Positions 1-23,960 of a DNA stretch of 39,589 nucleotides are shown here, piece by piece (within the stretch, counting starts at the first letter, position 1; the number at the start of each line of letters is the position of its first letter). Location of the stretch: contig CAWVME010000138.1 in NCBI GenBank assembly GCA_963930325.1, positions 1-39,589 of the forward strand, written 5' to 3'. The position numbers were made by a program, and so were the translations under genes. Source of the DNA: Bacillota bacterium (GTDB taxonomy: Bacteria; Bacillota; Clostridia; TANB77; CAG-508). The notes beneath the pieces are model-generated. The model was not told the origin of the DNA. It was given only the letters and a program-made list of their open reading frames with translations, and ran no database searches.

Positions 1-156
1 ATAAAGAAAAGTGCAACCATTTATGTTGTAGGAGCAGTATTATTATTTGGAGCAGTAGGAGTGCTACAAATTATTAAAGGATTTACAGAAGATGCTGGAT
101 TAGATGATATAGATGGAACAACACCTATCCAAAATGATCAAACAATGACGATATAA
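1..156 (+). CDS. 3' fragment of a pilin-like (VirB2/TrbC-type helical-hairpin) membrane protein, paralog 0; the 5' end lies upstream of the window
   Basis: Frame 1 is open from base 1 to TAA at 154-156. It reads IKKSATIYVVGAVLLFGAVGVLQIIKGF..., co-linear with IKKTATIYIIGAVILFGASGILQIIKNV of the complete paralog at 446-916. It is absent from the ORF track because it has no start in the window. Confidence 0.6.
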   Translation: MKKSATIYVVGAVLLFGAVGVLQIIKGFTEDAGLDDIDGTTPIQNDQTMTI

Positions 157-226
157 TAAAAGCTTAAATTATAAATTATTGCTAATTAGAAAGGTTAAAG
201 TATCAAAAATTAACTTTAAACAGAGA

Positions 227-255
227 AACAACAATTTCAATATTGTTGTTTTTTT
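227..255 (+). terminator. Rho-independent terminator candidate after paralog 0
   Basis: A 9-bp stem, AACAACAAT (227-235) / ATTGTTGTT (242-250), with a 6-nt loop, followed by T5 (251-255). Confidence 0.55.
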
Positions 256-295
256 GTTGCTCCGGAAATTTCGTTAGAAATTTCCGGAGCAACAA
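254..295. repeat. Perfect 19-bp inverted repeat with a 4-nt spacer
   Basis: TTGTTGCTCCGGAAATTTC (254-272), GTTA, GAAATTTCCGGAGCAACAA (277-295); the arms are exact reverse complements. No T-tract follows, so it is not a standard terminator. Confidence 0.9.
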
Positions 296-383
296 AGTTA
301 GAATCATTTAAGATGTGCGTATTTATAAAGCAAAAAGGCTTGTGATTATTTTGCTTAAAACTGGAATAAACCAAAGAAAAAAG

Positions 384-412
384 TTGATTTTAGGCGCTTT
401 TTGTATTATAAT
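384..412 (+). promoter_or_regulatory. Sigma-A-type promoter candidate for the pilin-like genes at 446-3043
   Basis: TTGATT (384-389), a 17-nt spacer, then TATAAT (407-412), 34 nt upstream of the ATG at 446. Confidence 0.5.
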
Positions 413-445
413 AAAAGAAAGGGAATTTTTTCTGGGAGGTGCAAA

Positions 446-916
446 ATGAAAACAAGTATAACAATAAAAATAATTTTTTTAATATCAATTATAAGTATTT
501 TTACAATCGGAAATTGTTTAGCAACAAATGGGTGGGATATAGAAATAACTCCCAATTCTGACCTAGGAAGCGACAATGATCAAAAAATTGTAAATGCTGG
601 AAATCAAATTATAGGAATAATACAAATGGTTGGGGTTGCTATAGCAGTTGTTATGCTTATAATGCTTGGAATAAAATATATGATAGCAGCACCAGACGAA
701 AAAGCAGATATAAAAAAGACCGCAACTATTTATATTATAGGAGCAGTAATATTATTTGGAGCGAGTGGAATTTTACAAATAATAAAAAATGTTGTTACAG
801 GACAACAACACATACATGATTATCAAGAGGTAAGTAGCTATACTCAAAATGGAAGAGTCGTAACAGTAATGCGTTGCACTATATGTGGAGCAGAAGAAGA
901 GTTTATGCAAATATAA
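446..916 (+). CDS. Pilin-like (VirB2/TrbC-type hairpin) secreted membrane protein, paralog 1, with an extra C-terminal tail
   Basis: The start is trimmed from the track ORF (401) to the ATG at 446, behind RBS GGGAGG. The 156-aa product has a signal peptide (...IGNCLA/TNG). The hairpin reads VAIAVVMLIMLGIKYMIAAPDEKADIKKTATIYIIGAVILFGASG. A 37-aa tail follows, containing CTIC. Confidence 0.75.
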   Translation: MKTSITIKIIFLISIISIFTIGNCLATNGWDIEITPNSDLGSDNDQKIVNAGNQIIGIIQMVGVAIAVVMLIMLGIKYMIAAPDEKADIKKTATIYIIGAVILFGASGILQIIKNVVTGQQHIHDYQEVSSYTQNGRVVTVMRCTICGAEEEFMQI

Positions 917-948
917 ACAAATATAAATTAGAAAGAATGGTGAGAAAA

Positions 949-1305
949 ATGAGAAAAAAGAAAATAATTTGCATATCAATTTTAATTCTAATGATAACCT
1001 TATTTTCCACTTGCGTATATGCAACACCAATTGATTCTATTATGGAACAAGTACAATCACCAGATGGAGATATCATCACTAGGGGAGATAGTATAAGGGG
1101 GAAAATATTATTTATTGTACAATTAATAGGAACTATTGTAGCTATTTGTACTCTTTTAGTACTTGGAATTAAATATATGATAGCAGCGCCAGATGGAAAA
1201 GCCAATATAAAAAAACAGGCTATAATTTATATAATAGGAGCATTTTTCCTATTCGGAGCAGTTGGAGTTGTAGAGATTATTAAACAGTTTGGAACAGGGT
1301 TATAA
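949..1305 (+). CDS. Pilin-like hairpin protein, paralog 2
   Basis: ATG at 949 behind GGTGAG (ATG at 937 is an alternative; the track start at 874 is unlikely). The 118-aa product has a signal peptide (...STCVYA/TPI) and the hairpin LLVLGIKYMIAAPDGKANIKKQAIIYIIGAFFLFGAVG. Confidence 0.75.
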   Translation: MRKKKIICISILILMITLFSTCVYATPIDSIMEQVQSPDGDIITRGDSIRGKILFIVQLIGTIVAICTLLVLGIKYMIAAPDGKANIKKQAIIYIIGAFFLFGAVGVVEIIKQFGTGL

Positions 1306-1364
1306 TAAATTAATAAAAAGTAATTTATAAATTTAAACAGTAAATAAAAAAGTGAGGTGAGAAA

Positions 1365-2669
1365 ATGATTAAAAATATGAGAAAAATAATATTAATTTTT
1401 TTACTTATATGTGTCATTTTCTCTTTTAAAACGGTAAAAGCTGATTCTGCAAGTGCACAACAAGCCTTAGATAAATTATTATTAGAAATTAGAGACAAGG
1501 TAAAAGATCCTAATATTTCGATAGATGAGAAAAAACAATTATTAATTTCATATGGCTGTTCACAAGGAACTGGAACAGACACAGATGAACTTGCAAGTAT
1601 AAATAATTATAATAGCAATGCCGAAATTCAGGCAATTTTGCAAGATCATGGGGTAGCAGGAAAAGTAACATATAAAATAGTGTTTGACCCAGAATGGGCA
1701 GATACAATGGTAGATAGCTATATTAAATCAAATGAAATTGGAAACTATAATGAAGATAAAAATGAATGGACTTTTGAGACAATAGAAGAGTGGAATGCAG
1801 GGAAACAATATCTGATAGATGAATGGGGGACCCAAGCTGAAATTAGTTGTGACGAAGAACTGTATAATCAACAAGGAGATACATATTTTAACGAATGCTT
1901 TGGAGAATATTGCTATATAGCAGTATCTAATGAAATGCCAAACCAAGCTGAGTATGAAGCTTTAAGAAGCTATTTTATAGATGGCTTAAATCGTATAAGA
2001 GCAAATGAAGTAACAGATGAAAACGGAAATGATGTTTATATAGATCCAACTGGTGGAAATACAGTTACTAATCCTTCAGAAAATCAAACAACAACTAACA
2101 CACCAACCACAAATTCACCTACAATGGAATTTATAAAACAAAAACTACAAGAATGTAAGGAAAGATATGAACAAGAGTATTATAAAACAATTAATAATGT
2201 AAAAGAATTAGAAGGACTTGGAACAGAACTTCGAGTTTTTAAAGAAAGATATACAGAAGAACTAGATATGTATAGAGACAAACTAATAGATGAAGGACTA
2301 AATCCACAAATAATAGATCAGTGTATAAACATGATTAATAGACAAATACAAAGATTGGAATATACAGTACAAACACCAGAGGGTATGGTAAACCAAGCAC
2401 AGGAATTTGTAAATCAAACACCTGCTATTTCACTTAATGAAATTGCAGGAAGCATTGTACCTATAGGAAAAGCAGCAGTTGCTATTGCTTTAGTTATTTT
2501 ACTAATTGTAACTATAATAATGGGAATAAAATACACTATGGCAGATCCTCAATCTAGAGGGCATTTGAAACAACAATTAGTAGGATTAGTAATATCTACA
2601 TTTGTAGTATTTGGAGCTTATGCTTTATGGGATTTTGTATATAGACTAGTAGTAGCAATATTTGAATAA
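1365..2669 (+). CDS. Large secreted protein whose C terminus is a pilin-like hairpin, paralog 3 (long type)
   Basis: RBS GAGGTGA. The 434-aa product has a signal peptide (...KTVKA/DSA). A roughly 335-aa ectodomain follows, with several Cys, a Thr/Asn-rich linker (TNPSENQTTTNTPTTNSPT) and a coiled-coil-like stretch. The C terminus reads LLIVTIIMGIKYTMADPQSRGHLKQQLVGLVISTFVVFGAYALW. Confidence 0.75.
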   Translation: MIKNMRKIILIFLLICVIFSFKTVKADSASAQQALDKLLLEIRDKVKDPNISIDEKKQLLISYGCSQGTGTDTDELASINNYNSNAEIQAILQDHGVAGKVTYKIVFDPEWADTMVDSYIKSNEIGNYNEDKNEWTFETIEEWNAGKQYLIDEWGTQAEISCDEELYNQQGDTYFNECFGEYCYIAVSNEMPNQAEYEALRSYFIDGLNRIRANEVTDENGNDVYIDPTGGNTVTNPSENQTTTNTPTTNSPTMEFIKQKLQECKERYEQEYYKTINNVKELEGLGTELRVFKERYTEELDMYRDKLIDEGLNPQIIDQCINMINRQIQRLEYTVQTPEGMVNQAQEFVNQTPAISLNEIAGSIVPIGKAAVAIALVILLIVTIIMGIKYTMADPQSRGHLKQQLVGLVISTFVVFGAYALWDFVYRLVVAIFE

Positions 2670-2683
2670 AAGGAGTTGGTAAA

Positions 2684-3043
2684 ATGAAAAAAAATATCTA
2701 TAGGATTTTAATTATTTGTATAATCAGTTTTATATTTCTTTCAATTACTGGATATTGTCTTGCAGTAGACACTTCTCAATATGAAGGAATTACTCAAATA
2801 GATGGAACAGAAATGGGTCCATTTGCAACTTTTGGTGGACAAATTGTTTATATTTTGCAATTTGTTGGATATAGCGTAGCTGTTATTATGCTAACAGTTA
2901 TGGGAATAAAATATATAATGTCAAGCCCAAATGATAAAGCAGACATAAAGTCTAAACTAGTTCCATATATTATAGGCGCTGTATTATTATTTGCTGGATC
3001 CACAATGCTAAATATAATATATAATATTGCAACAACAATATAA
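2684..3043 (+). CDS. Pilin-like hairpin protein, paralog 4
   Basis: RBS AAAGGAG. The 119-aa product has a signal peptide (...TGYCLA/VDT) and the hairpin VAVIMLTVMGIKYIMSSPNDKADIKSKLVPYIIGAVLLFAGS. Confidence 0.8.
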   Translation: MKKNIYRILIICIISFIFLSITGYCLAVDTSQYEGITQIDGTEMGPFATFGGQIVYILQFVGYSVAVIMLTVMGIKYIMSSPNDKADIKSKLVPYIIGAVLLFAGSTMLNIIYNIATTI

Positions 3044-3057
3044 AACAATCGAAAAAA

Positions 3058-3081
3058 AGGCGACTTTTATAAAAGTCGCCT
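3058..3081. terminator. GC-cored palindromic hairpin after paralog 4
   Basis: AGGCGACTTTTA / TAAAAGTCGCCT is a perfect 24-nt palindrome. An A7 run precedes it but only a weak T-tract follows. The geometry therefore suits stopping minus-strand (antisense) transcription better than + strand read-through. Confidence 0.4.
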
Positions 3082-3138
3082 ATTAGAATAAGTAATTCAT
3101 TTCAAAATTTATTTATTTTGGAAAGGAGGATTATTAAA

Positions 3139-3765
3139 ATGAAAAAAAAGTGGATAAATGGAATTATTCTAATTTTAATAATTATAAATTTACTTATTAC
3201 GCCATGTATTGCAATTACAGAAGCTGAGGCAGATGAAATTATAAGTGATGTGCTTTTATATAATAGTGGTGCAGGAGGAGTAACCTGGAAGGATTTAGAT
3301 AATGAAAAAATTTCAGAAATAACGTCAAAACTAGAAGAAGTTATGAGCAATTTTGATACAATTTATCCACAAGGACATATAAGAAGAAATTCAAAAACAG
3401 AGTTAGAAACAATTTTAAACAGTTTGAAAACCAGTACAAATGTAAATGCAGAAAAACCAAGCTTTGAAAACTTTTGGGAATCTGCCATGAATTTTCTTCG
3501 AATAGGTCAAAAAGGTGGAAATCAAGTATCTTTAGAAGAAGCGAAAGTAGAGCTTGAGGGATTAGCAAAAATTTTAATTATAGCTTCTATTATTATTTTA
3601 TTAATTGCAATTTTTGTAATAGCTATTAAATACATGATGGCAACAAGTAAAGAACAAGCTAAACTAAAAAATAAGTTGATAGGATTAGTTATTGCTACAG
3701 CAATTATAGGTGGAGCATATACTATCTGGAGCTTAGTATATAATTTTATAGCAGGGATCGAGTGA
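3139..3765 (+). CDS. Secreted protein with a C-terminal pilin-like hairpin, paralog 5 (long type)
   Basis: The start is trimmed to the ATG at 3139 behind AAAGGAGG. The 208-aa product has a signal peptide (...ITPCIA/ITE). The C terminus reads LLIAIFVIAIKYMMATSKEQAKLKNKLIGLVIATAIIGGAYTIW. The stop is TGA. Confidence 0.75.
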   Translation: MKKKWINGIILILIIINLLITPCIAITEAEADEIISDVLLYNSGAGGVTWKDLDNEKISEITSKLEEVMSNFDTIYPQGHIRRNSKTELETILNSLKTSTNVNAEKPSFENFWESAMNFLRIGQKGGNQVSLEEAKVELEGLAKILIIASIIILLIAIFVIAIKYMMATSKEQAKLKNKLIGLVIATAIIGGAYTIWSLVYNFIAGIE

Positions 3766-3779
3766 GGATTTATGTAAAC

Positions 3780-3827
3780 ATTACAAAAATATTACAAAGA
3801 TATTACAATTTGATAACTTTTTTACAA
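3780..3827 (+). repeat. Phased TTACAA direct repeats upstream of a promoter
   Basis: ATTACAA occurs at 3780, 3791 and 3802 (exact 11-bp period). A fourth TTACAA lies at 3822-3827. All are 26-73 bp upstream of the -35 element at 3853. Confidence 0.7.
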
Positions 3828-3852
3828 AAGCAGAGGATTTTAGCGTAAAATG

Positions 3853-3881
3853 TTGAAATAAAAAAGTTTTTTAAGTATAAT
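3853..3881 (+). promoter_or_regulatory. Sigma-A-type promoter candidate for paralog 6 and the downstream T4SS genes
   Basis: TTGAAA (3853-3858), a 17-nt spacer, then TATAAT (3876-3881). Confidence 0.55.
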
Positions 3882-3924
3882 TATATTAATTATGGCTGTA
3901 GTTGTACTAAAAGGGGTGAATAAA

Positions 3925-4623
3925 ATGAAAAAAATAATAACAATTGGAATTATAATAATTTTTTGCATACTTTTATTTACTTCACATGCTTATGCGGCTG
4001 ATGAAGAATATACAGAAACTTATATAGATGATAATTATACGGAAGTATATTTTGAAATCGTAGATGTATTTAATTCAGTTGGAATTACAATTGATGATAC
4101 AGATGATGTGATTAGAGAAAAACTTAGTGGATTATCAACTACGCAAAAAGACATTTTGTATAACAATATTGAGACATTTAATTCACTTCCTGGAAGAAGT
4201 ATGTTCGCAGGAGATGGAAATGATTATTTAAATAGAGTCGCGACTCAAATTTCTGATACTCAACCGGTTCAACAACAAGGAACAAGTACAAGTACAAACA
4301 ATAAATTTTCTTTTCCAAGTATAGGAGAGCTATTTCAAAAAGCAAGTGATTTTATTGGATTAGGCGCAAGTGGGGAAACTATTGGAGATGATGATTTAGT
4401 AGATCCAACATTGCAAATAGGAAGAGTTCTTATGACTATTGCAATTATTGTCCTTTTAATAGTAACTATTATTATGGCTATAAAATATATGATAGCAAAT
4501 CCAGAAGAACAAGGGAAATTAAAACAACAATTGGTTGGACTAGTAATTTCAGCGGCAGTTATATTTGGGGCATATATTATATGGCAAATAACAATTAATT
4601 TATTAACAAATGTAACACAATAA
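3925..4623 (+). CDS. Secreted protein with a C-terminal pilin-like hairpin, paralog 6 (long type)
   Basis: The start is trimmed to the ATG at 3925 behind AAGGGGTG. The 232-aa product has a signal peptide (...SHAYA/ADE). An acidic ectodomain carries a QQQGTSTSTNN linker. The C terminus reads LLIVTIIMAIKYMIANPEEQGKLKQQLVGLVISAAVIFGAYIIW. Confidence 0.75.
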   Translation: MKKIITIGIIIIFCILLFTSHAYAADEEYTETYIDDNYTEVYFEIVDVFNSVGITIDDTDDVIREKLSGLSTTQKDILYNNIETFNSLPGRSMFAGDGNDYLNRVATQISDTQPVQQQGTSTSTNNKFSFPSIGELFQKASDFIGLGASGETIGDDDLVDPTLQIGRVLMTIAIIVLLIVTIIMAIKYMIANPEEQGKLKQQLVGLVISAAVIFGAYIIWQITINLLTNVTQ

Positions 4624-4650
4624 ATTAAAAATGCAAAGGAGGAAATTTAA

Positions 4651-4986
4651 ATGGGAACTTATAATATTCCACGTAATTTAAAAGGAGAGTCTAGAATTTT
4701 ATACATATTTTCAGTCAAATCATTAATAACCACCGCTGGAGGAGCCATGATAGGAGGAATCTTCTTTTTGCTATTTAGTAGCATAGGACTCGACACAGTA
4801 GGAATGGTTTTTTTGGCACTATTTGCACTAATAGGTTTTTGCATAGGTGCTATTAAAATACCTACTTTAAACGGAATTAGTTTTACAAAAAAAATAGGAG
4901 GAGAGTCTATAGATGAGATTATACTCCGCTATATGAAATTTAAGAAAAATAGAAGAATTTATATAGATACAAAGGAGGAAAAGTAA
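4651..4986 (+). CDS. PrgI/VirB3-like small T4SS membrane protein
   Basis: RBS AAAGGAGG. The 111-aa product begins YNIPRNLKGESRILYIFSVKSL, followed by two hydrophobic helices. It lies upstream of VirB4, separated by one gene (4987-6222); orf17 of Tn916 and PrgI of pCF10 likewise sit upstream of their VirB4. Confidence 0.65.
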   Translation: MGTYNIPRNLKGESRILYIFSVKSLITTAGGAMIGGIFFLLFSSIGLDTVGMVFLALFALIGFCIGAIKIPTLNGISFTKKIGGESIDEIILRYMKFKKNRRIYIDTKEEK

Positions 4987-6222
4987 ATGGGAGAATCATT
5001 TGTAAATGCGCTTTATATTATTATGATTATACTAGTTTTCTTTATTATTGTACTAGGAGTTTGGCTATTAGTAATTAATCAAAAAGAAAAAAATGCAAAC
5101 AAAGAAAAGAAAAAAGACAATAGCGGAGAAGAAAAGGCAAATGCTAATTCTTACAAACCAGGACTTACAAGAGAAGCTGTACGAAACTTTATGGATTTTG
5201 ATGAGGTAAAAGACAGTATGATCATAAGAAAAAACAAGCAACAGTATGTTATGGTTATACAATGCCAAGGAGTAAACTATGACTTACTTTCAGAAGCAGA
5301 AAAAGTAGCTGTAGAAGAAGGGTTTGTTCAGTTTTTAAATATTTTAAGGTTCCCAATACAATTATACATACAAACACGAAGTTTAAACCTAAGAGAAATT
5401 ACAGACGAATATAAAAAGAAAATAAAAACAATAGAAGAAGAATTAGAAGATATTCAATTGAAACTAAGGGATGCAAGCTTAAAAGGAAATGAGAGATTAG
5501 TAAATGATTTAAAATTCCAAGAAAGGCGTAAGAAAAATATTTTAGAATATGGTACAGATATTACAGAATATGTAGGAAGACTTAGCTTAAATAAAAATGT
5601 ACTACAACAAAAAACATATTTAATTGTTTCATATTTCGCAAATGAGCTTGGGTCAGTAGACACTTATTCTAAAGATGAAATTGCTAACATGTGTTTTTCA
5701 GAATTATACACAAGATGTCAATCAATTATAAGATCACTTGCTACTTCATCTGTAACAGGGAAAGTGCTAAATTCAGAAGAATTAGCAGAACTATTATATG
5801 TAGCCTATAATAGAGATGATGAAGAATTAATTCAATTATCAAAGGCATTAGATGCAGAATATGATAGGCTATACAGCGTAGGAAGAGATGTACTAGATAA
5901 GAAAAAAGAACAAATTGAAAGACAATTGGATATGGATGCAGCAAAACTTGCAACAGATAGCATGTTAGAAGTGGATAAAAAAAGGAAAAAACAAAAAGAA
6001 GAAATTCAAAAAGAAGAGAAAATAAAAAGAAAAGCATTAGGTTTAGTGGAACAATATAGAGACCAAATGGATAGAGATCTTTACCAAGGAACAAAGGAAG
6101 AAATAATAAGAAAATCCGAAGAGAAAAAGGCAAAAATAGCAGGTAAAAAGGGAGAAAAATTATCAGAAGAACAGATAAAAGAAATGAGTAAAAGAACAAT
6201 TAAATCGAAAAAAACCCTATAA
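4987..6222 (+). CDS. Membrane-anchored coiled-coil protein whose central part resembles a VirB4 N-terminal domain; no ATPase motifs
   Basis: The ATG abuts the upstream TAA. The 411-aa product has an N-terminal TM helix (ALYIIMIILVFFIIVLGVWLLVI). The segment FMDFDEVKDSMIIRKNKQQYVMVIQCQGVNYDLLSEAEKVAVEEGFVQFLNILRFPIQLYIQTRS has the pattern seen at the N terminus of VirB4/TraC-type proteins. The C-terminal third is K/E-rich. No Walker A motif is present. Confidence 0.4.
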   Translation: MGESFVNALYIIMIILVFFIIVLGVWLLVINQKEKNANKEKKKDNSGEEKANANSYKPGLTREAVRNFMDFDEVKDSMIIRKNKQQYVMVIQCQGVNYDLLSEAEKVAVEEGFVQFLNILRFPIQLYIQTRSLNLREITDEYKKKIKTIEEELEDIQLKLRDASLKGNERLVNDLKFQERRKKNILEYGTDITEYVGRLSLNKNVLQQKTYLIVSYFANELGSVDTYSKDEIANMCFSELYTRCQSIIRSLATSSVTGKVLNSEELAELLYVAYNRDDEELIQLSKALDAEYDRLYSVGRDVLDKKKEQIERQLDMDAAKLATDSMLEVDKKRKKQKEEIQKEEKIKRKALGLVEQYRDQMDRDLYQGTKEEIIRKSEEKKAKIAGKKGEKLSEEQIKEMSKRTIKSKKTL

Positions 6223-6300
6223 TATCAAGAAAAATAGATATAACTTGGTATAAAAATATCGCTCAAGGAAAAATAACGAAAGATTAAGGAGTGTGTGAAA

Positions 6301-15461: not shown

Positions 15462-17417
15462 ATGAAAAAAATACTAAATAAGGTATGTGTAATTGGATTA
15501 ATTATAACTATACTGTGCAATATTCTTTTGCCACAATATGCTTATGCAACTGACTCAAGTTCTACAACTCCAAGTAGTGGAGGGACAACCAGTTCTACAA
15601 TACAATTTGATAATGAAGCAATAAGTGCAGAGGAAGCAGATATGGTACCAGTTAGCATTCCAATACCGATTCTCGGAGGAGTAATTGAACTACTTTTAGA
15701 TGCAATAAAATTATTAATAGTATTACCGGGAATGATTATTAATGGTGTAAATAGTGGAATTGGTGGGATGGAAGGAAATGAGGGAGAAACCTTTATTTCT
15801 TTATATAATATTTTATTTAATCAATTAGGAATAACAGACATCAATATTCTAGAATTTTCTTGGGGAACGCAACAAAATGCAATAGATGCTAATAGTGATA
15901 GTGCGGTAGCGACAATAAGAAGAAATATTGCTTATTGGTATTATGGAATTAGAAATTTAGCAATAGTTATATTGCTTTGTGTACTTATTTATATTGGAAT
16001 TCGAATGGCAATATCAACTATTGCAGAAGATAGGGCACGATACAAGCAATTATTAATGTACTGGTTTACAGCAGTGGTCTTGGTATTTATTCTACATTAT
16101 ATTATTCTTATAACTATTAATGTAAATACTGCTTTGGTTTCCATAATAGAAACAGCAGCAGGAAGCTCTAACTATTCAGCCAATATGGAAGCATACAATG
16201 GACTTCTGCTAGAAAGGGCATTTGGACTTCAAGAGGGTGTTGGTTGGAAAATTATTAACACTTTAATTGGAAGAATGAATAATATACCAGCATCTTTTGG
16301 AGCAGCAATACTTTACACAATTCTTAATGGAATGACTTTTGCATTTTTAATGCTATACATAAGACGTATGATCATTTTGTCGTTTTTAATATTGATTGCA
16401 CCAATTATTACAATTACTTATCCAATAGATAAAGTAGGAGATGGAAAATCGCAAGCACTAAATACATGGCTTAAAGAATTTATGTTTACAGTTTTAATAC
16501 AACCATTCCACTGTTTAATTTTTGTAATATTTGTTTCAACCGCAATGAACTTACTAAATGGAACATTTGCAAGTACTATATTTGCAATTGTTACAGTTAC
16601 TTTCTTATTCCAAGCAGAAGGAATTGTAAAGAAAATATTTGGATTCCAACAAGCAAGTACATTGGGAGATGCTATTAAATCTGCAGCAGCTATTACAGCA
16701 GGTACAAATTTGGTTAAAGGTATTGCATCTAAAGCTGGTAGTTCAATGAAAACAGGAAGCTCTGGCTCAACAAGTTCTAATACAAGCTCTGCTAATTCAG
16801 GGGCTTCGGGCTCAGGAGGAAGCAACTCAGGAGGAACGAGTACTAATGGAACTGCTTCGACTGGATCTGGCTCAGGGGGAACAGGTTCTGGAAATTCCGG
16901 AACAGGAACTTCTAATTCAGGTGGAAGAGTAAAAACATGGCTACGAGCACACCCAAAAACATCAAAAGCATTGAAGACAGGACTAAAAGGATATGCAAAA
17001 GTTGGAAAATTTGCTTTTGCAGCAGGTGTAGCTTCTCTAGGAGCTGGTACAGGAAACTTTATGCAAACTACAACTGCAGCTATAGGTGTAAATGAAGCAA
17101 TCAATTCAGTTGGCAATGGAATGAGAGCAAGAAGATATGCTAAAAACTTAAATAATGATTTGTATCTAGCAGGAAATGAATATGATGCAAGAGTACAAGC
17201 CTTAATAGATAGTGGCTTATCGCAAAATCAAGCTCATGCACAATTAAAGGCAGATATTACACGATTAATACATACAGAAATTGGTAGAATTAGAAATACA
17301 GAACCTCAAAATGAACGTTTAGCTACTATTTTACATGAAGCAGTTACAAGAGCAGAACAATTAGGAAAAGAAAAACCAGAAGAATTTGTATTTAAACAAG
17401 TAACTGGAGGGAATTAA
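15462..17417 (+). CDS. VirB6-like polytopic membrane protein, paralog 3, with a Gly/Ser-rich linker and a basic C-terminal domain
   Basis: The 651-aa product has a signal peptide (...QYAYA/TDS). It carries GIRMAISTIAEDRARYKQ (15996-16049) and APIITITYPIDKVGDGKSQ. A 65-aa G/S/T/N tract lies at 16731-16925. Confidence 0.65.
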   Translation: MKKILNKVCVIGLIITILCNILLPQYAYATDSSSTTPSSGGTTSSTIQFDNEAISAEEADMVPVSIPIPILGGVIELLLDAIKLLIVLPGMIINGVNSGIGGMEGNEGETFISLYNILFNQLGITDINILEFSWGTQQNAIDANSDSAVATIRRNIAYWYYGIRNLAIVILLCVLIYIGIRMAISTIAEDRARYKQLLMYWFTAVVLVFILHYIILITINVNTALVSIIETAAGSSNYSANMEAYNGLLLERAFGLQEGVGWKIINTLIGRMNNIPASFGAAILYTILNGMTFAFLMLYIRRMIILSFLILIAPIITITYPIDKVGDGKSQALNTWLKEFMFTVLIQPFHCLIFVIFVSTAMNLLNGTFASTIFAIVTVTFLFQAEGIVKKIFGFQQASTLGDAIKSAAAITAGTNLVKGIASKAGSSMKTGSSGSTSSNTSSANSGASGSGGSNSGGTSTNGTASTGSGSGGTGSGNSGTGTSNSGGRVKTWLRAHPKTSKALKTGLKGYAKVGKFAFAAGVASLGAGTGNFMQTTTAAIGVNEAINSVGNGMRARRYAKNLNNDLYLAGNEYDARVQALIDSGLSQNQAHAQLKADITRLIHTEIGRIRNTEPQNERLATILHEAVTRAEQLGKEKPEEFVFKQVTGGN

Positions 17418-18950: not shown

Positions 18951-21900
18951 ATGGATGAAGAAAACAAAGAATTAAATGAGGAAGACATTAATCAAGAAGA
19001 AAAGGAACAATCAGAACAAGAAGAAACAGAACAAGAAGAACAAAATCAGGAAGAAACTCAAAAACCTAGTTCTGGAAGTAATGGCGCAAATAGTAGTAGT
19101 CCATCTGCCAGAGAAAGGATAAAACGAACACAAGAGCAAATAAAGAAACAATCAAGGGCAGAAGTACAAAAGAAAATAAAAAAAGAGATGCAAAAGAAAA
19201 TAAAAAAAGAGACAGAAAAAAGAATAGCAAAAGAAGCAGCAAAAAAGGCGGCAGTTGAAGCAGCTAAAAAAGAAGCTGCTAAAGCAGCAGCCAAAGCAGC
19301 AGCAGCAGAGGCGGCTAAAGCAGCAGCTGCTACCACAGCAAAAGCAGCAGCAACTACCGCAGCAGCAGCCACAGCAGGAACGGGAGGCGGTTGTGCTATT
19401 GGTTGTGCTGTTGCAATAGTAATTATAGTAATTATTATATTAATTATAGGTTCAAATTCATTTTTTAGTAATATGCCTGACTCCATAATTGGAAAAATAA
19501 CAGAATGGTGGGATGACACTTGGAGAGAAACAAAAGTATATTGGGCAGAGAGTGTTTCAGAAGAACTAGCAAAAGAAAGATTGGAAAGTACAGCACAATA
19601 TGTAGAAAATATGGGGTATGATTTAGCAGGATATGGCTTTTTAGACCCAGGAGAAGTAGAAGAAGATGAAGGAAAAAAAGTTGACTACAAATATATAGAA
19701 GTAGATGTAGATAGCAATGGTATTCTCTATTATGGAGGTATAAAGATAGTAGGTACATCAATAATTGGACAAGATTTACAATGGTCAATAAGTAGAGAAA
19801 ATTTAGGAAAAATCCTACCAGGAGTAGACCCAGGAGACGAATCAGCTAATATGATGGTTTTTAATACTACATTTAATCAAAGCGTTATAGAAGCAATTTT
19901 TGGACTAAAAACTAAACCATCATATGCAGTAATACGAGTTAGAATTGTTGAAGATAATGAAGGAAATAAAAAGATTGAGCCGGGAGAAGATGATGGTGCA
20001 TCTTTACATACTGTTTTGGAAAAAGATGAGAATGGAAATATTATTTATGCAGATAGTAGAGTATTATTGTCCTATCTTGCAGCAGAAGAAAGAACATATA
20101 TGTTTAAAGGGCAATATTGGAATATTCATGACTGGTGGGAAGGAAGCTTTTGGGACAAATTAGATATATTTAACTTCGTAAAAGACGTAGAAGAAGATAG
20201 AGAAGGAATGATTGAATTTGAACAAAGTGTCTTAGATGAATATGAGGAGTATAGTAATACTAATATACTAGATGAAAATGGTGAAGAAGAAGCATTAAAC
20301 CTAACAATAGATCGTGCAAATAGAATATTTTCAGTACCTTATATAGAAAGAAATGTCAACCTTTTTCCTATAAAATTTGGAGAATATAATTATGATTTAG
20401 TTGGATGGACAGGAAAGTATGGCAAACCAATTGAGTTTTCATTAGCCATGCATTTATCTACTATGTCACCGGATTTTACATATAAATTTGTAACAGATGA
20501 AGAATTAGAAAGTGTGGTTAGTATAAAGTTTGCAAAAATTCCATCTTCAAGAAGGCTATTGAGAGATGGAGCAGATGCACAAGAAGCTGAAGGACAAAGA
20601 CTACTAGAACAACTAGAGCAAAGAATAAGTGAAATAGAGGGATATAAAGAGAAAATAGAAAAAAACAATACGGATATAGAGGGATATAGAAATGAGATAG
20701 CAGACTTAGAAGCAGAAATGGAAAATGGACAGCCTCTTGCCAATAGTTTCATAGTGCAAGAAAAAAACTCATACGAGGAAGCCATTTCAGAACTTAGAGC
20801 AGAAAATTTTAAAATGCAAGAAATGATAGATTTCTTAGAGTCAGAAGAGATACAAAGTGCAATTGAAGTGGCAAGAGAATGTTTTTCTACCAATATTTTA
20901 AATGAAAATCAAAGATCTAAGCTAAAAGATATTATTTATGGGGGACAAAGTTGGATAACTGGAAGTAGATCAGGTGGACTAAATGATAAATTAGAAATGG
21001 AATTAGAATTAGAGGAATTTATCGGAATTTGTACATATAATGATCATTACAGTAGTGTCCAAATAAATGTACCATATATATCAGAAGTGACAAACCACTG
21101 GTATAGAAATTTATATTTTGGAACAGTCAACAGTGGAGCTGGATATGTAGTAAAAACAGATGCAAGTGGAGCTGCTACAGAAATAACAGACAGAGATGCT
21201 TTAATACAAATATTAAAATCTTATAGTAATACAGAAGCAGCTAACCGAATGGAAAAATATGTAGATATTATATTAGAAATACAGGAAGAATATAAAGTAA
21301 ATGCTTTGTTTACAGCAGCTGTTGGAATTATAGAATCTAGGTGGGGAACTGCAAGTAATGAAAACTTAAATAGTAGAAATAACTGGTTTAGTATTTCTGG
21401 AAAACAAGGGAACTATTGGACAAGACCAAGTGATGGACAAACATTTAATGAATATTCTTCGCCAGAAGAAGGAATTCGAGCATTTGGAAGACTGATTGGA
21501 GATATAGGAGCAGGAGGAGCTAGTGATAATTATTATTTTGGAAAAGGTAATATAACAGTAGGAGCAATTGCAGAACACTACTGCAACACTGATTGGGGCG
21601 AAAAAGTAAATAAACAAATGCAAGCTTTTTATAAATATGCAGAAGAAAATAATTTGATTGAAGGAAATACGACTACTATAGACGATACAGATGATACAGA
21701 AGAAGATTTTTCTGCTTATGAATTAGACTATAGTTTAGCTGAAACTTATGAAACTTCGGTTGTAGTACAGAAAACTTATGATGCATACGATGGAGAAGTA
21801 ACAGAAGTAGATGGTTGTGGACTATCTGCAGATGATTATACAGTACAAGTAACAATTCCATATGGTATTAAACAAGTATCTGAGCCAAAGGTATATGACA

Positions 21901-23960
21901 ACTCTAAAAGAGTAAAAGAATTATTAGGTGTAACAGATTATGATTTAAAAGAACTATATAATGAAGAATTACAAGAAATTGTTGAACAAGAATTGGAAGA
22001 AACTGGAGTAGAGTTAGAAGAGGATGAAGCTTGGCTAAGATTATCAGATACATATAAAGAAAGAGCCCAATATTATATTTTTGATGGAAGTGGTAGATCA
22101 GAAGAAAAACAAAACATTTCTCCAACCAAAAGTTCTATTACAGCAATGGCAATTTTAGAGAATGTTCATACAGAAGATGCTGCACACATTTTAAAAGATT
22201 TTAAAGAATTATTTAATGATATTGGATTTGAAGTAGAATTAGAAGAAGATATATCATCAACAGAAAAAAATCAATCTTTAAAATGGATATTTAAAGATTA
22301 TGTACCAGGGTATGATTGGCCATTAAAAGATGAAATTCCAGTATTAGAAGATGACAGATCAACTTATAGTTCAAGACCATTTGCTTATGTTGTAAAAAAC
22401 GGAAATCAATCCGAAGAAGACAGAAATGGTTTTACAGGAGGAGAAGAATTAGTTACACCAGGAAATTGTATAGTAAAGGATGTAGGACAAGATTATATTG
22501 TATTAGAGTTTGTAGATGTAACAAAAACAGAAAAGAAACAAGTAAGAGAATTTAAAAATGGGAAATATGAATTAGTAGAAGTAGAAGAAACCATGTACGA
22601 CAATGAAGTAAATGGAATGGTACTTTATGTATATGGATTAGATGTAGAAGAAGGAATAGAAAAGGATCAAAAACTAGAAGCAGAAACTAAAATAGGTACA
22701 GCAAATGCAGAGAAAAACTTAGAAATGGTTATGAAAGACCAATTGAATTCACCAGTTGTTGTATCTCAATACATATATCCACCAGAAATGACAGAAGTTA
22801 TATTTGACTTATCTGGATTAGAAGGATTAGCACTTGAAGTATGGACCAAATATTCAGCAGAAATAACGGAAATGGCAATTAAATATGGATTAGATCCATA
22901 TGCTATTATTGCAGTTATTTGTGTAGAATCTAGTGGACGTTTAGATCTTGATGATAATGGTATAGCTTATGGATTAATGCAATGTCATATGAAATATCAT
23001 GCAGTTAAAGATAAAGTATTAGTAGATGTCGATGGAAATAAAGAAACAAAGGATTGTTCACCTAGTGCAATGAAAGGAAATGCAAGCTTGCAAATAGAAT
23101 GTGGATGTCATGTACTTCGTAGTTATATATTCTATGATGATTGGACAGGTGGCAACTGGTTTAGAGGGTTAGGTGCATACAACAAAGGACCAAGCGGAAT
23201 AAAAAAACCAGGAGCTCTAGATAGATTTAGAAATGGATACTGGGGTAAAAAATATGGATTTGTAAATTTCTTTTATGGTGGAGAAGAAACCTGGGCTATT
23301 AAAAAAGAAGGTGGTAAATATTATCAAATATTTACTAATATAGAAACTGGAGAGATAACAAGAGAAGTAGAGGTAAGTTGGCCACCAGCAGGAGGACTTA
23401 AAGTTACTATCGGTGGAGGAAATCAGAATGCAGCAAATGGTGATGGATATACTACAACATATACTTCTACAGCAGGAAGAACTTTTAATGAATTTAAACA
23501 GAGTAGAGGAAGTTATAAAGGTCAGTTATATAGTGAAGGAACTATTTCAAGCTCTGGATGTGGACCAACTTCAGTAGCAATTGTACTAAGCGGATATGGA
23601 CAAAATGTAGATCCAGGAGATATTGCTAAAGCAATGGGTGGTGCACATAATGGAGGAACAAACGGATCAAACTTAGCGTCAGCTTTAAGGAGATATGGTC
23701 TTGGTGCAAGGCAAGTGAGTAGACCATCAGCTTCACAGATAAGGACACAGCTACAATCAGGTAAAGAAATCGTAGTATCAGTAGGATCAAGTCCAGATAG
23801 TAAATTTACTGGAAGTGGACATATTATGGCGATATTAGACATTAATAGCAATGATGAAGTATATATCTCAAATCCTAATCCACGTACATACAATGGTTGG
23901 ATACCATTAAATCAGTTTATTAAATATTGTTCTTATAAATATGCAGTTTTCGTAGAGTAA
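18951..23960 (+). CDS. Giant membrane-anchored multidomain peptidoglycan hydrolase (VirB1/PrgK/CwlT functional analogue)
   Basis: RBS AAGGTGAG. The product is 1669 aa. The charged, Ala-rich cytoplasmic N terminus leads to a TM helix at about 19381-19455. The GH73 glucosaminidase-like block is ALFTAAVGIIESRWGTAS...NWFSISG (about 21280-21640). A His-less LytM-like block lies at about 22425-22705. The SLT block is AIIAVICVESSG...AYGLMQ (Glu codon 22926-22928). The C39-like peptidase has SSGCGPTSVAIVLSGYG (Cys codon 23559-23561) and GSGHIMAIL. Confidence 0.8.
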   Translation: MDEENKELNEEDINQEEKEQSEQEETEQEEQNQEETQKPSSGSNGANSSSPSARERIKRTQEQIKKQSRAEVQKKIKKEMQKKIKKETEKRIAKEAAKKAAVEAAKKEAAKAAAKAAAAEAAKAAAATTAKAAATTAAAATAGTGGGCAIGCAVAIVIIVIIILIIGSNSFFSNMPDSIIGKITEWWDDTWRETKVYWAESVSEELAKERLESTAQYVENMGYDLAGYGFLDPGEVEEDEGKKVDYKYIEVDVDSNGILYYGGIKIVGTSIIGQDLQWSISRENLGKILPGVDPGDESANMMVFNTTFNQSVIEAIFGLKTKPSYAVIRVRIVEDNEGNKKIEPGEDDGASLHTVLEKDENGNIIYADSRVLLSYLAAEERTYMFKGQYWNIHDWWEGSFWDKLDIFNFVKDVEEDREGMIEFEQSVLDEYEEYSNTNILDENGEEEALNLTIDRANRIFSVPYIERNVNLFPIKFGEYNYDLVGWTGKYGKPIEFSLAMHLSTMSPDFTYKFVTDEELESVVSIKFAKIPSSRRLLRDGADAQEAEGQRLLEQLEQRISEIEGYKEKIEKNNTDIEGYRNEIADLEAEMENGQPLANSFIVQEKNSYEEAISELRAENFKMQEMIDFLESEEIQSAIEVARECFSTNILNENQRSKLKDIIYGGQSWITGSRSGGLNDKLEMELELEEFIGICTYNDHYSSVQINVPYISEVTNHWYRNLYFGTVNSGAGYVVKTDASGAATEITDRDALIQILKSYSNTEAANRMEKYVDIILEIQEEYKVNALFTAAVGIIESRWGTASNENLNSRNNWFSISGKQGNYWTRPSDGQTFNEYSSPEEGIRAFGRLIGDIGAGGASDNYYFGKGNITVGAIAEHYCNTDWGEKVNKQMQAFYKYAEENNLIEGNTTTIDDTDDTEEDFSAYELDYSLAETYETSVVVQKTYDAYDGEVTEVDGCGLSADDYTVQVTIPYGIKQVSEPKVYDNSKRVKELLGVTDYDLKELYNEELQEIVEQELEETGVELEEDEAWLRLSDTYKERAQYYIFDGSGRSEEKQNISPTKSSITAMAILENVHTEDAAHILKDFKELFNDIGFEVELEEDISSTEKNQSLKWIFKDYVPGYDWPLKDEIPVLEDDRSTYSSRPFAYVVKNGNQSEEDRNGFTGGEELVTPGNCIVKDVGQDYIVLEFVDVTKTEKKQVREFKNGKYELVEVEETMYDNEVNGMVLYVYGLDVEEGIEKDQKLEAETKIGTANAEKNLEMVMKDQLNSPVVVSQYIYPPEMTEVIFDLSGLEGLALEVWTKYSAEITEMAIKYGLDPYAIIAVICVESSGRLDLDDNGIAYGLMQCHMKYHAVKDKVLVDVDGNKETKDCSPSAMKGNASLQIECGCHVLRSYIFYDDWTGGNWFRGLGAYNKGPSGIKKPGALDRFRNGYWGKKYGFVNFFYGGEETWAIKKEGGKYYQIFTNIETGEITREVEVSWPPAGGLKVTIGGGNQNAANGDGYTTTYTSTAGRTFNEFKQSRGSYKGQLYSEGTISSSGCGPTSVAIVLSGYGQNVDPGDIAKAMGGAHNGGTNGSNLASALRRYGLGARQVSRPSASQIRTQLQSGKEIVVSVGSSPDSKFTGSGHIMAILDINSNDEVYISNPNPRTYNGWIPLNQFIKYCSYKYAVFVE

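Follow-up and report, generated by a model that had tools for sequence, protein, structure and literature searches.

Reviews published until 2025 stated that Gram-positive type IV secretion systems (T4SSs) have no VirB2 pilin, with the Patescibacteria as the sole exception (PMC12857230). In Patescibacteria, arrays of 2-11 divergent VirB2 genes (PF04956/PF18895) lie near virB4, usually without a relaxase gene (PMC12102498, PMC12857230). In December 2025, PrgF of plasmid pCF10 was reported as an essential, pilus-forming VirB2-like pilin, proposed to polymerise on a VirB6-like pentamer, with labelling data that support its extrusion from the membrane; the same preprint, whose candidates had 50-150 aa, noted that sequence homology is almost absent (bioRxiv 10.64898/2025.12.18.695078). 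Multiple VirB2 and VirB6 paralogs also occur in the Trw system of Bartonella and in Anaplasma/Rickettsiales (PMC12857230). Here we describe a tandem array of genes for predicted VirB2/TrbC-type pilins at positions 1-4623 of contig CAWVME010000138.1 (assembly GCA_963930325.1, Bacillota bacterium); the whole stretch of 39,589 nt is called the window below. We read the array as the pilin paralogs of a chromosomal, vertically inherited and probably non-conjugative T4SS, in which class A pilins would be the major subunits and class B pilins minor or tip subunits with variable N-terminal domains ("heads"), and we give this reading a probability of about one half. A first-pass annotation of the stretch had started from the premise that Gram-positive systems lack a VirB2-type pilus, which the report on PrgF makes dated.

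The T4SSs of the ultra-small Patescibacteria Southlakia epibionticum and Nanosynbacter lyticus share with this locus a monoderm host, chromosomal and lineage-wide occurrence, a pilin array close to virB4, a TrsD/TraC-like protein encoded between VirB3 and a short VirB4, and the usual absence of a relaxase (PMC12102498, PMC12857230); the organisms concerned likewise have small genomes and are difficult to grow or not yet in culture. The host differs, being a Clostridium here. The order of the pilin classes (A(n)-B), the head-bearing pilins and the pilin hairpin within polytopic proteins are not reported for Patescibacteria, as far as PMC12102498 and PMC12857230 show. Essentiality and an epibiotic role have been shown for Southlakia only.

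PrgF shares with the class A proteins its small size, two helices and a charged loop, and its gene likewise belongs to a Firmicutes T4SS operon and has VirB6-like, VirB3 and VirB4 genes in its vicinity. It differs in its length of 75 aa and, judging from its sequence, in beginning with the first hydrophobic helix and having no separate signal-peptide segment. It is also a single-copy protein on a plasmid that carries both a relaxase and a coupling protein, whereas the pilins here are multi-copy, some with large heads, and the visible region encodes neither of these two proteins. In contrast to PrgF, the array proteins match the classical Pfam pilin profiles.

The systems of Bartonella and the Rickettsiales share tandem, sequence-variable pilins and several VirB6-like paralogs, some of them extended, and Trw has no coupling protein; their proposed role is variable adhesion, not DNA transfer (PMC12857230). 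They differ in belonging to diderm proteobacteria with an outer-membrane core, separate VirB5 tip proteins and pilins without fused ectodomains. The tip adhesin VirB5/TraC of pKM101 is a proposed functional analogue of class B, which would be a minor component that mediates contact from the start or tip of the pilus and is usually encoded in one copy beside the machinery genes; we claim no homology. VirB5 itself lacks the two-helix pilin hairpin, being a soluble helical protein.

In the order TANB77 a Tad-type pilus cluster occurs lineage-wide, in which several pilin-like genes are each served by a promoter of their own (PMC11680825). It shares with the present locus the uncultured gut order (probable in our case) and the lineage-wide occurrence of surface-filament genes. 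It differs in its CpaF/TadA ATPase, TadB/C and TadE-like type IV pilins, none of which is encoded in the window. We rejected the paper on this "conserved pilin" of TANB77 as a description of the locus, as it treats a Tad/CpaF cluster with no mention of a T4SS or VirB2 (PMC11680825). A literature search of incomplete coverage returned no account of the Clostridia system, the A(n)-B rule, head-bearing VirB2 proteins or a pilin hairpin in platform proteins. With VirB2 arrays known from Patescibacteria and Bartonella and a Gram-positive VirB2-like pilin known in PrgF, the locus is a variant of these.

Predicted VirB2/TrbC-type pilins in a tandem array

The array contains one truncated and six complete open reading frames (ORFs; p0 to p6, Table 1) for secreted proteins with a common C-terminal two-helix hairpin, all on the + strand, where the first-pass annotation had placed them. 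The window has 29% GC, and nearly every gene in it is on the + strand. The earlier count of seven holds for the window, but the array continues upstream beyond its edge: in the metagenome-assembled genome (MAG) BRZ_T bin16 (L001), which is 99.2% identical to the genome of the window and was used to complete the array, it has eight members, with an additional 140-aa class A gene upstream of the complete p0 gene. Upstream of the array L001 encodes an M16 peptidase, lgt and a Spo0E-like gene.

The kinship of the paralogs lies far above chance (HMM E-values down to 1e-28), with hairpin identities of 19-97%. The identity of 44 of 51 nt between positions 668-718 and 1165-1215 was exact as first given, and a 58-nt direct-repeat family of six copies spans the IKY-loop region of all six genes. 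For p1, the length of 156 aa was correct, but 35 of these residues form a C-terminal tail after the hairpin. This tail (812-916) follows the second helix and has a CxxC motif (RCTICGAEEEF); the other paralogs have no tail.

Hydropathy showed three hydrophobic segments in each complete member. The N-terminal one ends at an AxA-like site, as read from the sequence, and the two C-terminal helices are separated by a short Lys-rich loop. An AlphaFold2 model of p4 has helices at residues 2-26, 45-79 and 82-118, with pLDDT block means of 71-86 in the hairpin. A signal-peptide-like segment and the two C-terminal helices, as described in the first pass, are present in every complete member. The class A proteins p1, p2 and p4 have the small mature size of a pilin without an extra domain, which p3, p5 and p6, with 115-340 aa before the hairpin, do not.

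The hairpin matches PF18895 (T4SS_pilin) at E = 5e-8 to 4e-6 and PF04956 (TrbC/VirB2) at E down to 2e-7. Four of the six complete paralogs (p1, p3, p4 and p6) reach or exceed the curated Pfam cut-off of PF18895 (26.6 bits), and p1 and p4 also that of PF04956 (27.9 bits), the hairpin being VirB2/TrbC-like by profile. Immediately downstream of the array are VirB3-like, TraC/TrsD-like and VirB4 genes, with 27 nt between its end and the PrgI-like gene and VirB4 1.7 kb downstream. We found relatives of this VirB4 in 80 species-representative genomes, all MAGs of gut Clostridia, at 74-100% identity (more than 575 matching stretches overall), so at least 80 species-level gut Clostridia genomes hold VirB4 relatives of at least 74% identity. 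Pilin ORFs, 1-8 per locus, are present upstream of VirB4 in 79 of these 80 loci. Look-ups that started from the pilins and gave a clean context always placed the relatives in arrays beside T4SS genes; a use of the hairpin as a generic membrane anchor outside T4SS loci was not seen among them. A tblastn search of the hairpin against plasmids gave no match, probably due to low-complexity masking. On profile, layout and context, we assign the seven ORFs, and the eight of the full array, to predicted VirB2/TrbC-type pilin paralogs.

Two other assignments were rejected. A type IV pilin or sortase-assembled pilus would call for a G/FTLxE prepilin leader or a C-terminal LPXTG, and neither is present in the seven translations. 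A lipoprotein reading could have been drawn from the Cys near the cleavage site pointed out earlier, which is preceded by N, T, Y or P in the window members. It has no L-[ASTVI]-[GAS]-C lipobox, as already noted in the first pass, and it is not a trait of the family: only 114 of the 319 relatives have such a Cys, and in these position -1 holds I, L or F.

Two pilin classes in A(n)-B order and exchangeable heads

The two sub-types of the first-pass annotation are real, and are better described as two conserved classes in A(n)-B order. Class A (p0, p1, p2 and p4) has the consensus ...laiKYm.AaPgdKAdIKKhAv.YvvGAvvLFgA, and class B (p3, p5 and p6) the consensus ...MGIKYmtA.Pe.qAKLKqQLIGLVVS.vVIFGAy.IW together with an upstream a..Fi.kG motif. 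Across the 80 loci, 0-7 class A genes are followed by class B, and exactly one class B gene adjoins virB3 in 75 of them. Three class B copies were found only in the window, L001 and L002. The usual class B protein is about 133 aa long; the copies in the window carry heads of 115-340 aa.

These heads had been described as mutually dissimilar, which does not hold for p5 and p6, whose ectodomains are homologous (66 identities over 203 aligned residues). In p3, a Cys-containing orphan head (residues ~27-225) is followed by a Thr/Asn linker, a helical stalk (254-351) and the hairpin (365-433); the head (residues 25-225) has no relative outside its own cluster among 1.84 billion representative proteins. 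The stalk and hairpin of p3 recur under unrelated heads in P0017 (396 aa) and P0018 (528 aa), and P0018 occupies the orthologous (fifth) array position in the related locus L084. Likewise, the p6 alleles P0014 and P0015 have an identical signal peptide and identical C-terminal 100 aa with the middle replaced. A Pfam search with the heads of p3, p5, p6, P0014, P0017 and P0018 and with the long forms in L002 and L065 found no known domain. Among relatives, then, the head is exchanged while the stalk and hairpin are conserved. The idea of pilin-adhesin fusions put forward in the first pass gains support from this exchange, in which heads of unrelated sequence top a conserved stalk and hairpin at an orthologous place in the array. 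Nucleotide differences between the window and L001 are strongly clustered, in the p3 head (1935-1993) and in the N-terminal exposed parts of a 387-aa protein (8384-8456) and a 651-aa protein (15491-15728) encoded downstream, which suggests recombination patches or diversifying selection.

Three further arrangements were seen in related loci. L061 (4797-5501) and L063 (7583-8290) each encode a single polypeptide of 234-235 aa with two tandem pilin hairpins. A 399-aa pilin in L002 (7140-8339) has ectodomains both N- and C-terminal of the hairpin. In the metagenome contig L086 (3651-4962), a p5 copy truncated at its 5' end lies against a gene for a type IV prepilin-like protein (FTLPEF leader), a T2SSE ATPase is encoded close to the latter, and class A genes are lacking; a deletion, a rearrangement or a chimeric assembly could account for this.

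Signals within the array and a possible variation repertoire

The two promoter-like sites named in the first pass are the best two consensus matches in positions 1-5000. Such matches are modestly enriched in this DNA. The hairpin after p4 was also present, and the one given at 227-255 proved to belong to a tandem pair of stem-loops (211-296; -45.5 kcal/mol, z = -11). The first stem-loop of the pair (219-258) is followed by a T-run and is terminator-like; the second (253-296) has a perfect 20-nt inverted repeat (TTTGTTGCTCCGGAAATTTC / GAAATTTCCGGAGCAACAAA) and no T-run after it. Among the fetched loci the pair occurs elsewhere only in L001, of the same species. A terminator pair and an operator are both conceivable. 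Scans of the window with Rfam and for tRNAs returned nothing.

These signals bear on a different account of the array, in which it serves as a variation repertoire: alternative major subunits would be expressed one or a few at a time, and the filament surface would change accordingly, whether as an escape from host IgA or phages or as an adjustment to different partner cells. Such a role has been proposed for the VirB2 arrays of Bartonella Trw, Anaplasma and Patescibacteria (PMC12102498, PMC12857230). The promoter-like sites before p1 and p6 and the strong hairpins after p0 and p4 could split the array into units, class A copy number varies from 0 to 7 between species, and the paralogs diverge widely within the hairpin itself; the clustering of strain-level differences in exposed parts and the replaced heads of the p6 alleles point the same way. 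However, we found no invertible element, recombinase or silent-cassette structure in positions 1-4700, and the promoter matches are consensus matches only, with 44 found against 30 expected by chance in DNA of 29% GC. We regard this account as tentative and somewhat unlikely on its own; it is compatible with our preferred reading of class A as major and class B as minor subunits, and stresses switching over co-assembly.

Secretion machinery and pilin-like platform proteins

Table 1. Pilin genes, putative control signals and T4SS genes in the window
Feature	Position	Strand	Description
p0	1..156	+	last 51 codons of a class A pilin; complete gene in L001 = 135 aa
tandem stem-loops p0/p1	211..296	+	-45.5 kcal/mol, z = -11
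promoter-like site before p1	384..412	+	TTGATT, 17 nt, TATAAT; consensus match only
p1	446..916	+	class A, 156 aa; signal peptide + hairpin + 35-aa C-terminal tail with CxxC; PF18895 32.4 bits, PF04956 31.3 bits
p2	937..1305	+	class A, 122 aa; PF18895 22.5 bits, under cut-off
p3	1365..2669	+	class B, 434 aa; signal peptide, head, Thr/Asn linker, stalk, hairpin; PF18895 27.4 bits
p4	2684..3043	+	class A, 119 aa; PF18895 33.3 bits, PF04956 27.9 bits
GC-rich palindromic hairpin after p4	3055..3084 (3058-3081)		terminator-like on the - strand in the scan
p5	3139..3765	+	class B, 208 aa; ~115-aa head homologous to p6 head; sub-threshold Pfam matches (15.6, 17.3 bits)
promoter-like site before p6	3853..3881	+	TTGAAA, 17 nt, TATAAT; 11/12 matches; consensus match only
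p6	3925..4623	+	class B, 232 aa; conserved last-gene slot adjoining virB3; PF18895 32.9 bits
VirB3-like (PrgI family)	4651..4986	+	two transmembrane (TM) helices; PF12666 25.6 bits, slightly under cut-off 27
411-aa TraC/TrsD-like protein	4987..6222	+	N-terminal TM helix; resembles N-terminal part of VirB4
VirB4-type ATPase	6295..8271	+	658 aa; without the usual N-terminal domain
387-aa polytopic membrane protein	8301..9464	+	presumptive VirB6 slot; first helix pair pilin-like
311-aa single-pass membrane protein	9468..10403	+	conserved in locus
1557-aa protein	10769..15442	+	NlpC/P60 wall-hydrolase domains, then pilin-like hairpin + polytopic domain
651-aa protein	15462..17417	+	third polytopic-domain paralog with pilin-like hairpin; weak match to Mycoplasma ICE transfer protein family
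two single-pass membrane proteins, 174 + 315 aa	17438..18923	+	possibly VirB8-like, by position and topology only
1669-aa multi-domain wall hydrolase	18951..23960	+	glucosaminidase, SLT, C39-like peptidase; VirB1/PrgK-like role
283-aa single-pass membrane protein	23976..24827	+	final gene ahead of housekeeping genes

The genes downstream of the array encode further predicted T4SS components (Table 1). VirB4 appears to be split (4987-8271), an arrangement also reported for Patescibacteria, with a 411-aa TraC/TrsD-like protein preceding the 658-aa ATPase: the former shares 50% identity (E = 5e-128) with a protein for which a match to PF26593 (TraC-like) is on record, and the latter aligns to positions 181-729 only of the CD1110 VirB4 model. 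A comparison (hhalign) of the 411-aa profile with PrgJ was not significant, nor was any of the pilin, platform, VirB3 and 411-aa profiles with PrgF, PrgH, PrgI and PrgJ of pCF10. Searches of PDB with the alignments of the 411-aa and 387-aa families gave nothing usable. The content of wall hydrolases is unusually heavy, with NlpC/P60 domains fused to a platform-type domain in the 1557-aa protein and a separate 1669-aa hydrolase.

The 387-, 1557- and 651-aa proteins have a common six-helix membrane domain. Its first helix pair reads LIYIGIRMAISTIASDKAKYKK and resembles the pilin sequence GIKYMIAAPDEKADIKK. Profile comparison of the pilin hairpin with this helix pair gave a probability of 96.6% (hhalign, E = 6e-10), against less than 3% for three membrane-protein control families. 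PF18895 gives independent matches to 18 of the 23 relatives in the 387-aa family and to the corresponding plasmid protein of 864 aa. From their position and topology we tentatively place these three platform proteins in the VirB6 role.

The occurrence of the hairpin in platform proteins invites the explanation that it is a membrane-integral channel module and not a fibre subunit, and that no pilus is made. The short proteins would then be channel or platform accessories and the long ones anchored exoproteins, such as wall-spanning scaffolds or VirB5/VirB8-like parts. In the three polytopic proteins the same hairpin is built in where no free subunit can leave the membrane, electron microscopy (EM) has so far not shown a VirB2-type conjugative pilus on any Gram-positive cell, and large N-terminal domains are atypical for VirB2, the candidates in the preprint having 50-150 aa (bioRxiv 10.64898/2025.12.18.695078). 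On the other hand, the Pfam pilin families match at full-family cut-offs, it is typical of pilin arrays to hold a small two-helix protein in several divergent versions, and the labelling data on PrgF favour extrusion from the membrane (bioRxiv 10.64898/2025.12.18.695078). We consider this explanation improbable, and keep to the reading of the short and long proteins as pilins.

Chromosomal context and inheritance

Several of the 80 genomes with VirB4 relatives are Candidatus Scatovivens, which has been placed in TANB77/CAG-508 (PMC13106387), and the host order of the system is therefore probably TANB77, a wholly uncultured order (PMC9606305). From 24.9 kb on, the window contains housekeeping genes (CAP/SH3, D-Ala-D-Ala carboxypeptidases, LytR, ComEA, Sua5, DedA, a two-component system and AdhE), and the genes upstream of the array in the 80 related loci are housekeeping genes as well. 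Neither the ORFs of the window nor those of the upstream flank in L001 (~43 kb) gave a relaxase, a coupling protein or an integrase, and we rejected a mobile-element reading for lack of these genes in the flanks. A conjugation system is thus not visible here: neither relaxase nor coupling protein is seen, and the flanks consist of chromosomal housekeeping genes.

VirB4 identity between relatives (74-84%) is higher than that of the syntenic flanking M16 peptidase (51-66%), and the two correlate (rho = 0.53, p = 0.011). Vertical inheritance fits because VirB4 is the more conserved of the two and both co-vary. The context and these comparisons fit a chromosomal, vertically inherited locus that is probably non-conjugative.

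The closest plasmid relatives are on plasmids of C. botulinum and C. beijerinckii, whose VirB4 is 41% identical and which have one weak pilin-like gene; the gene order there is pilin, VirB3-like, X, VirB4 and a large protein with a pilin-like hairpin, and one plasmid has a TraM-recognition (coupling protein) gene nearby. That the locus supplies the mating pore of a conjugative element, with relaxase and coupling protein elsewhere and pilins that serve ordinary conjugation as PrgF does, would agree with the gene order shared with these plasmids, with the TraM-recognition gene on one of them and with the sometimes large distance of coupling-protein genes from virB4 (PMC12102498), but is very unlikely given the housekeeping genes on both sides of a region of ~43 kb free of transfer and integrase genes, the housekeeping upstream neighbours in 80 species, and a VirB4 that, unlike a mobile element, is more conserved than its flanking gene and co-varies with it.

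Two other features of the surroundings may be mentioned. A ComEA protein (SLBB and helix-hairpin-helix DNA receptor) is encoded 4.9 kb downstream of the T4SS (29733-30341) and is among the nearest genes upstream of the pilin array in five related loci (L015, 5695-6342, and four others); its proximity may reflect nothing more than synteny or may point to DNA uptake. Between a response regulator and a histidine kinase, at 32973-34035, lie two ORFs (225 and 121 aa) with no family match.

A proposed assembly scheme

From the proposed roles of the genes in VirB2 systems we infer filament assembly, the division into major and minor subunits and an adhesin function of the heads, as follows. Each pilin would be exported by Sec and cleaved at its AxA-like site, leaving the mature protein in the membrane with both termini outside and the short Lys-rich loop in the cytoplasm. 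By analogy with VirB2 systems, a module of VirB3, the TraC-like protein and the VirB4 ATPase, together with the three polytopic platform proteins, would extract subunits and stack them into a filament that crosses the wall; the platform proteins themselves open their membrane domain with a pilin-like hairpin. Class A, with its variable copy number, would supply interchangeable major subunits, and class B, normally single-copy and adjoining virB3, a specialised minor subunit. In the clade of the window, class B has been triplicated and has gained N-terminal heads. A pilus growing from its base would display these heads outside or at its tip as variable binding modules, in a role analogous to that of VirB5.

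Several results weigh against this scheme and the assignment on which it builds. No filament of this system has yet been observed. VirB2 membership rests on profile, layout and context and not on structure, because Foldseek of the p4 model against PDB returned generic helical hairpins only (best E = 0.7), with no specific match to solved VirB2 pilins, and a PDB search with the pilin sequence profile returned no relative; a fold as simple as this is not discriminated by Foldseek. The pilin profile has no detectable relation to PrgF (hhalign probability 0.8%). Among the paralogs, p2 and p5 score under the Pfam cut-offs, though an in-house HMM identifies both as unambiguous paralogs. The AlphaFold2 model of p3, from an alignment of four sequences, has a mean pLDDT of 43, with only residues 100-190 moderately confident, and is unusable. 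The VirB6 role of the platform proteins is deduced from position and topology only, because no VirB6/TrbL profile matches them. Heads of 340 aa on all subunits would be difficult to accommodate around a VirB2-type helix, and class B subunits would therefore have to be sparse or terminal, which the scheme assumes. Finally, a relaxase or coupling protein could be encoded elsewhere in the genome.

Significance

Pfam-recognisable VirB2 arrays are present in ordinary Firmicutes, as part of a chromosomal machine kept across at least 80 gut species, and the case of the Patescibacteria is not unique because Clostridia hold conserved chromosomal VirB2 arrays. The locus also offers two testable design rules, the A(n)-B gene order and the pilin hairpin within platform proteins, both relevant to the nucleation and the tip of a VirB2 fibre in a system without VirB5. 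The head-bearing class B pilins are natural cases of large domains shown on a VirB2 scaffold. They would be abundant, variable surface proteins of a clade that has been linked to the response to cancer immunotherapy, in work on a different, Tad-type pilus (PMC11680825), and are therefore candidates for host or inter-bacterial recognition.

A bolder proposal, which we hold to be speculative and unlikely in its full form, is that the probable host order TANB77 keeps this vertically inherited, non-conjugative T4SS as a core organelle, like the Patescibacteria, with a repertoire of class A pilins, hairpin-bearing platforms as its nucleus and a class B cap with swappable heads. If so, the heads of the cap would determine which cell or surface is contacted, and these proteins would be the first VirB2-adhesin fusions, in place of VirB5. 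Such a system would imply a contact-dependent, possibly partner-dependent lifestyle, which could help to explain the resistance of these bacteria to cultivation.

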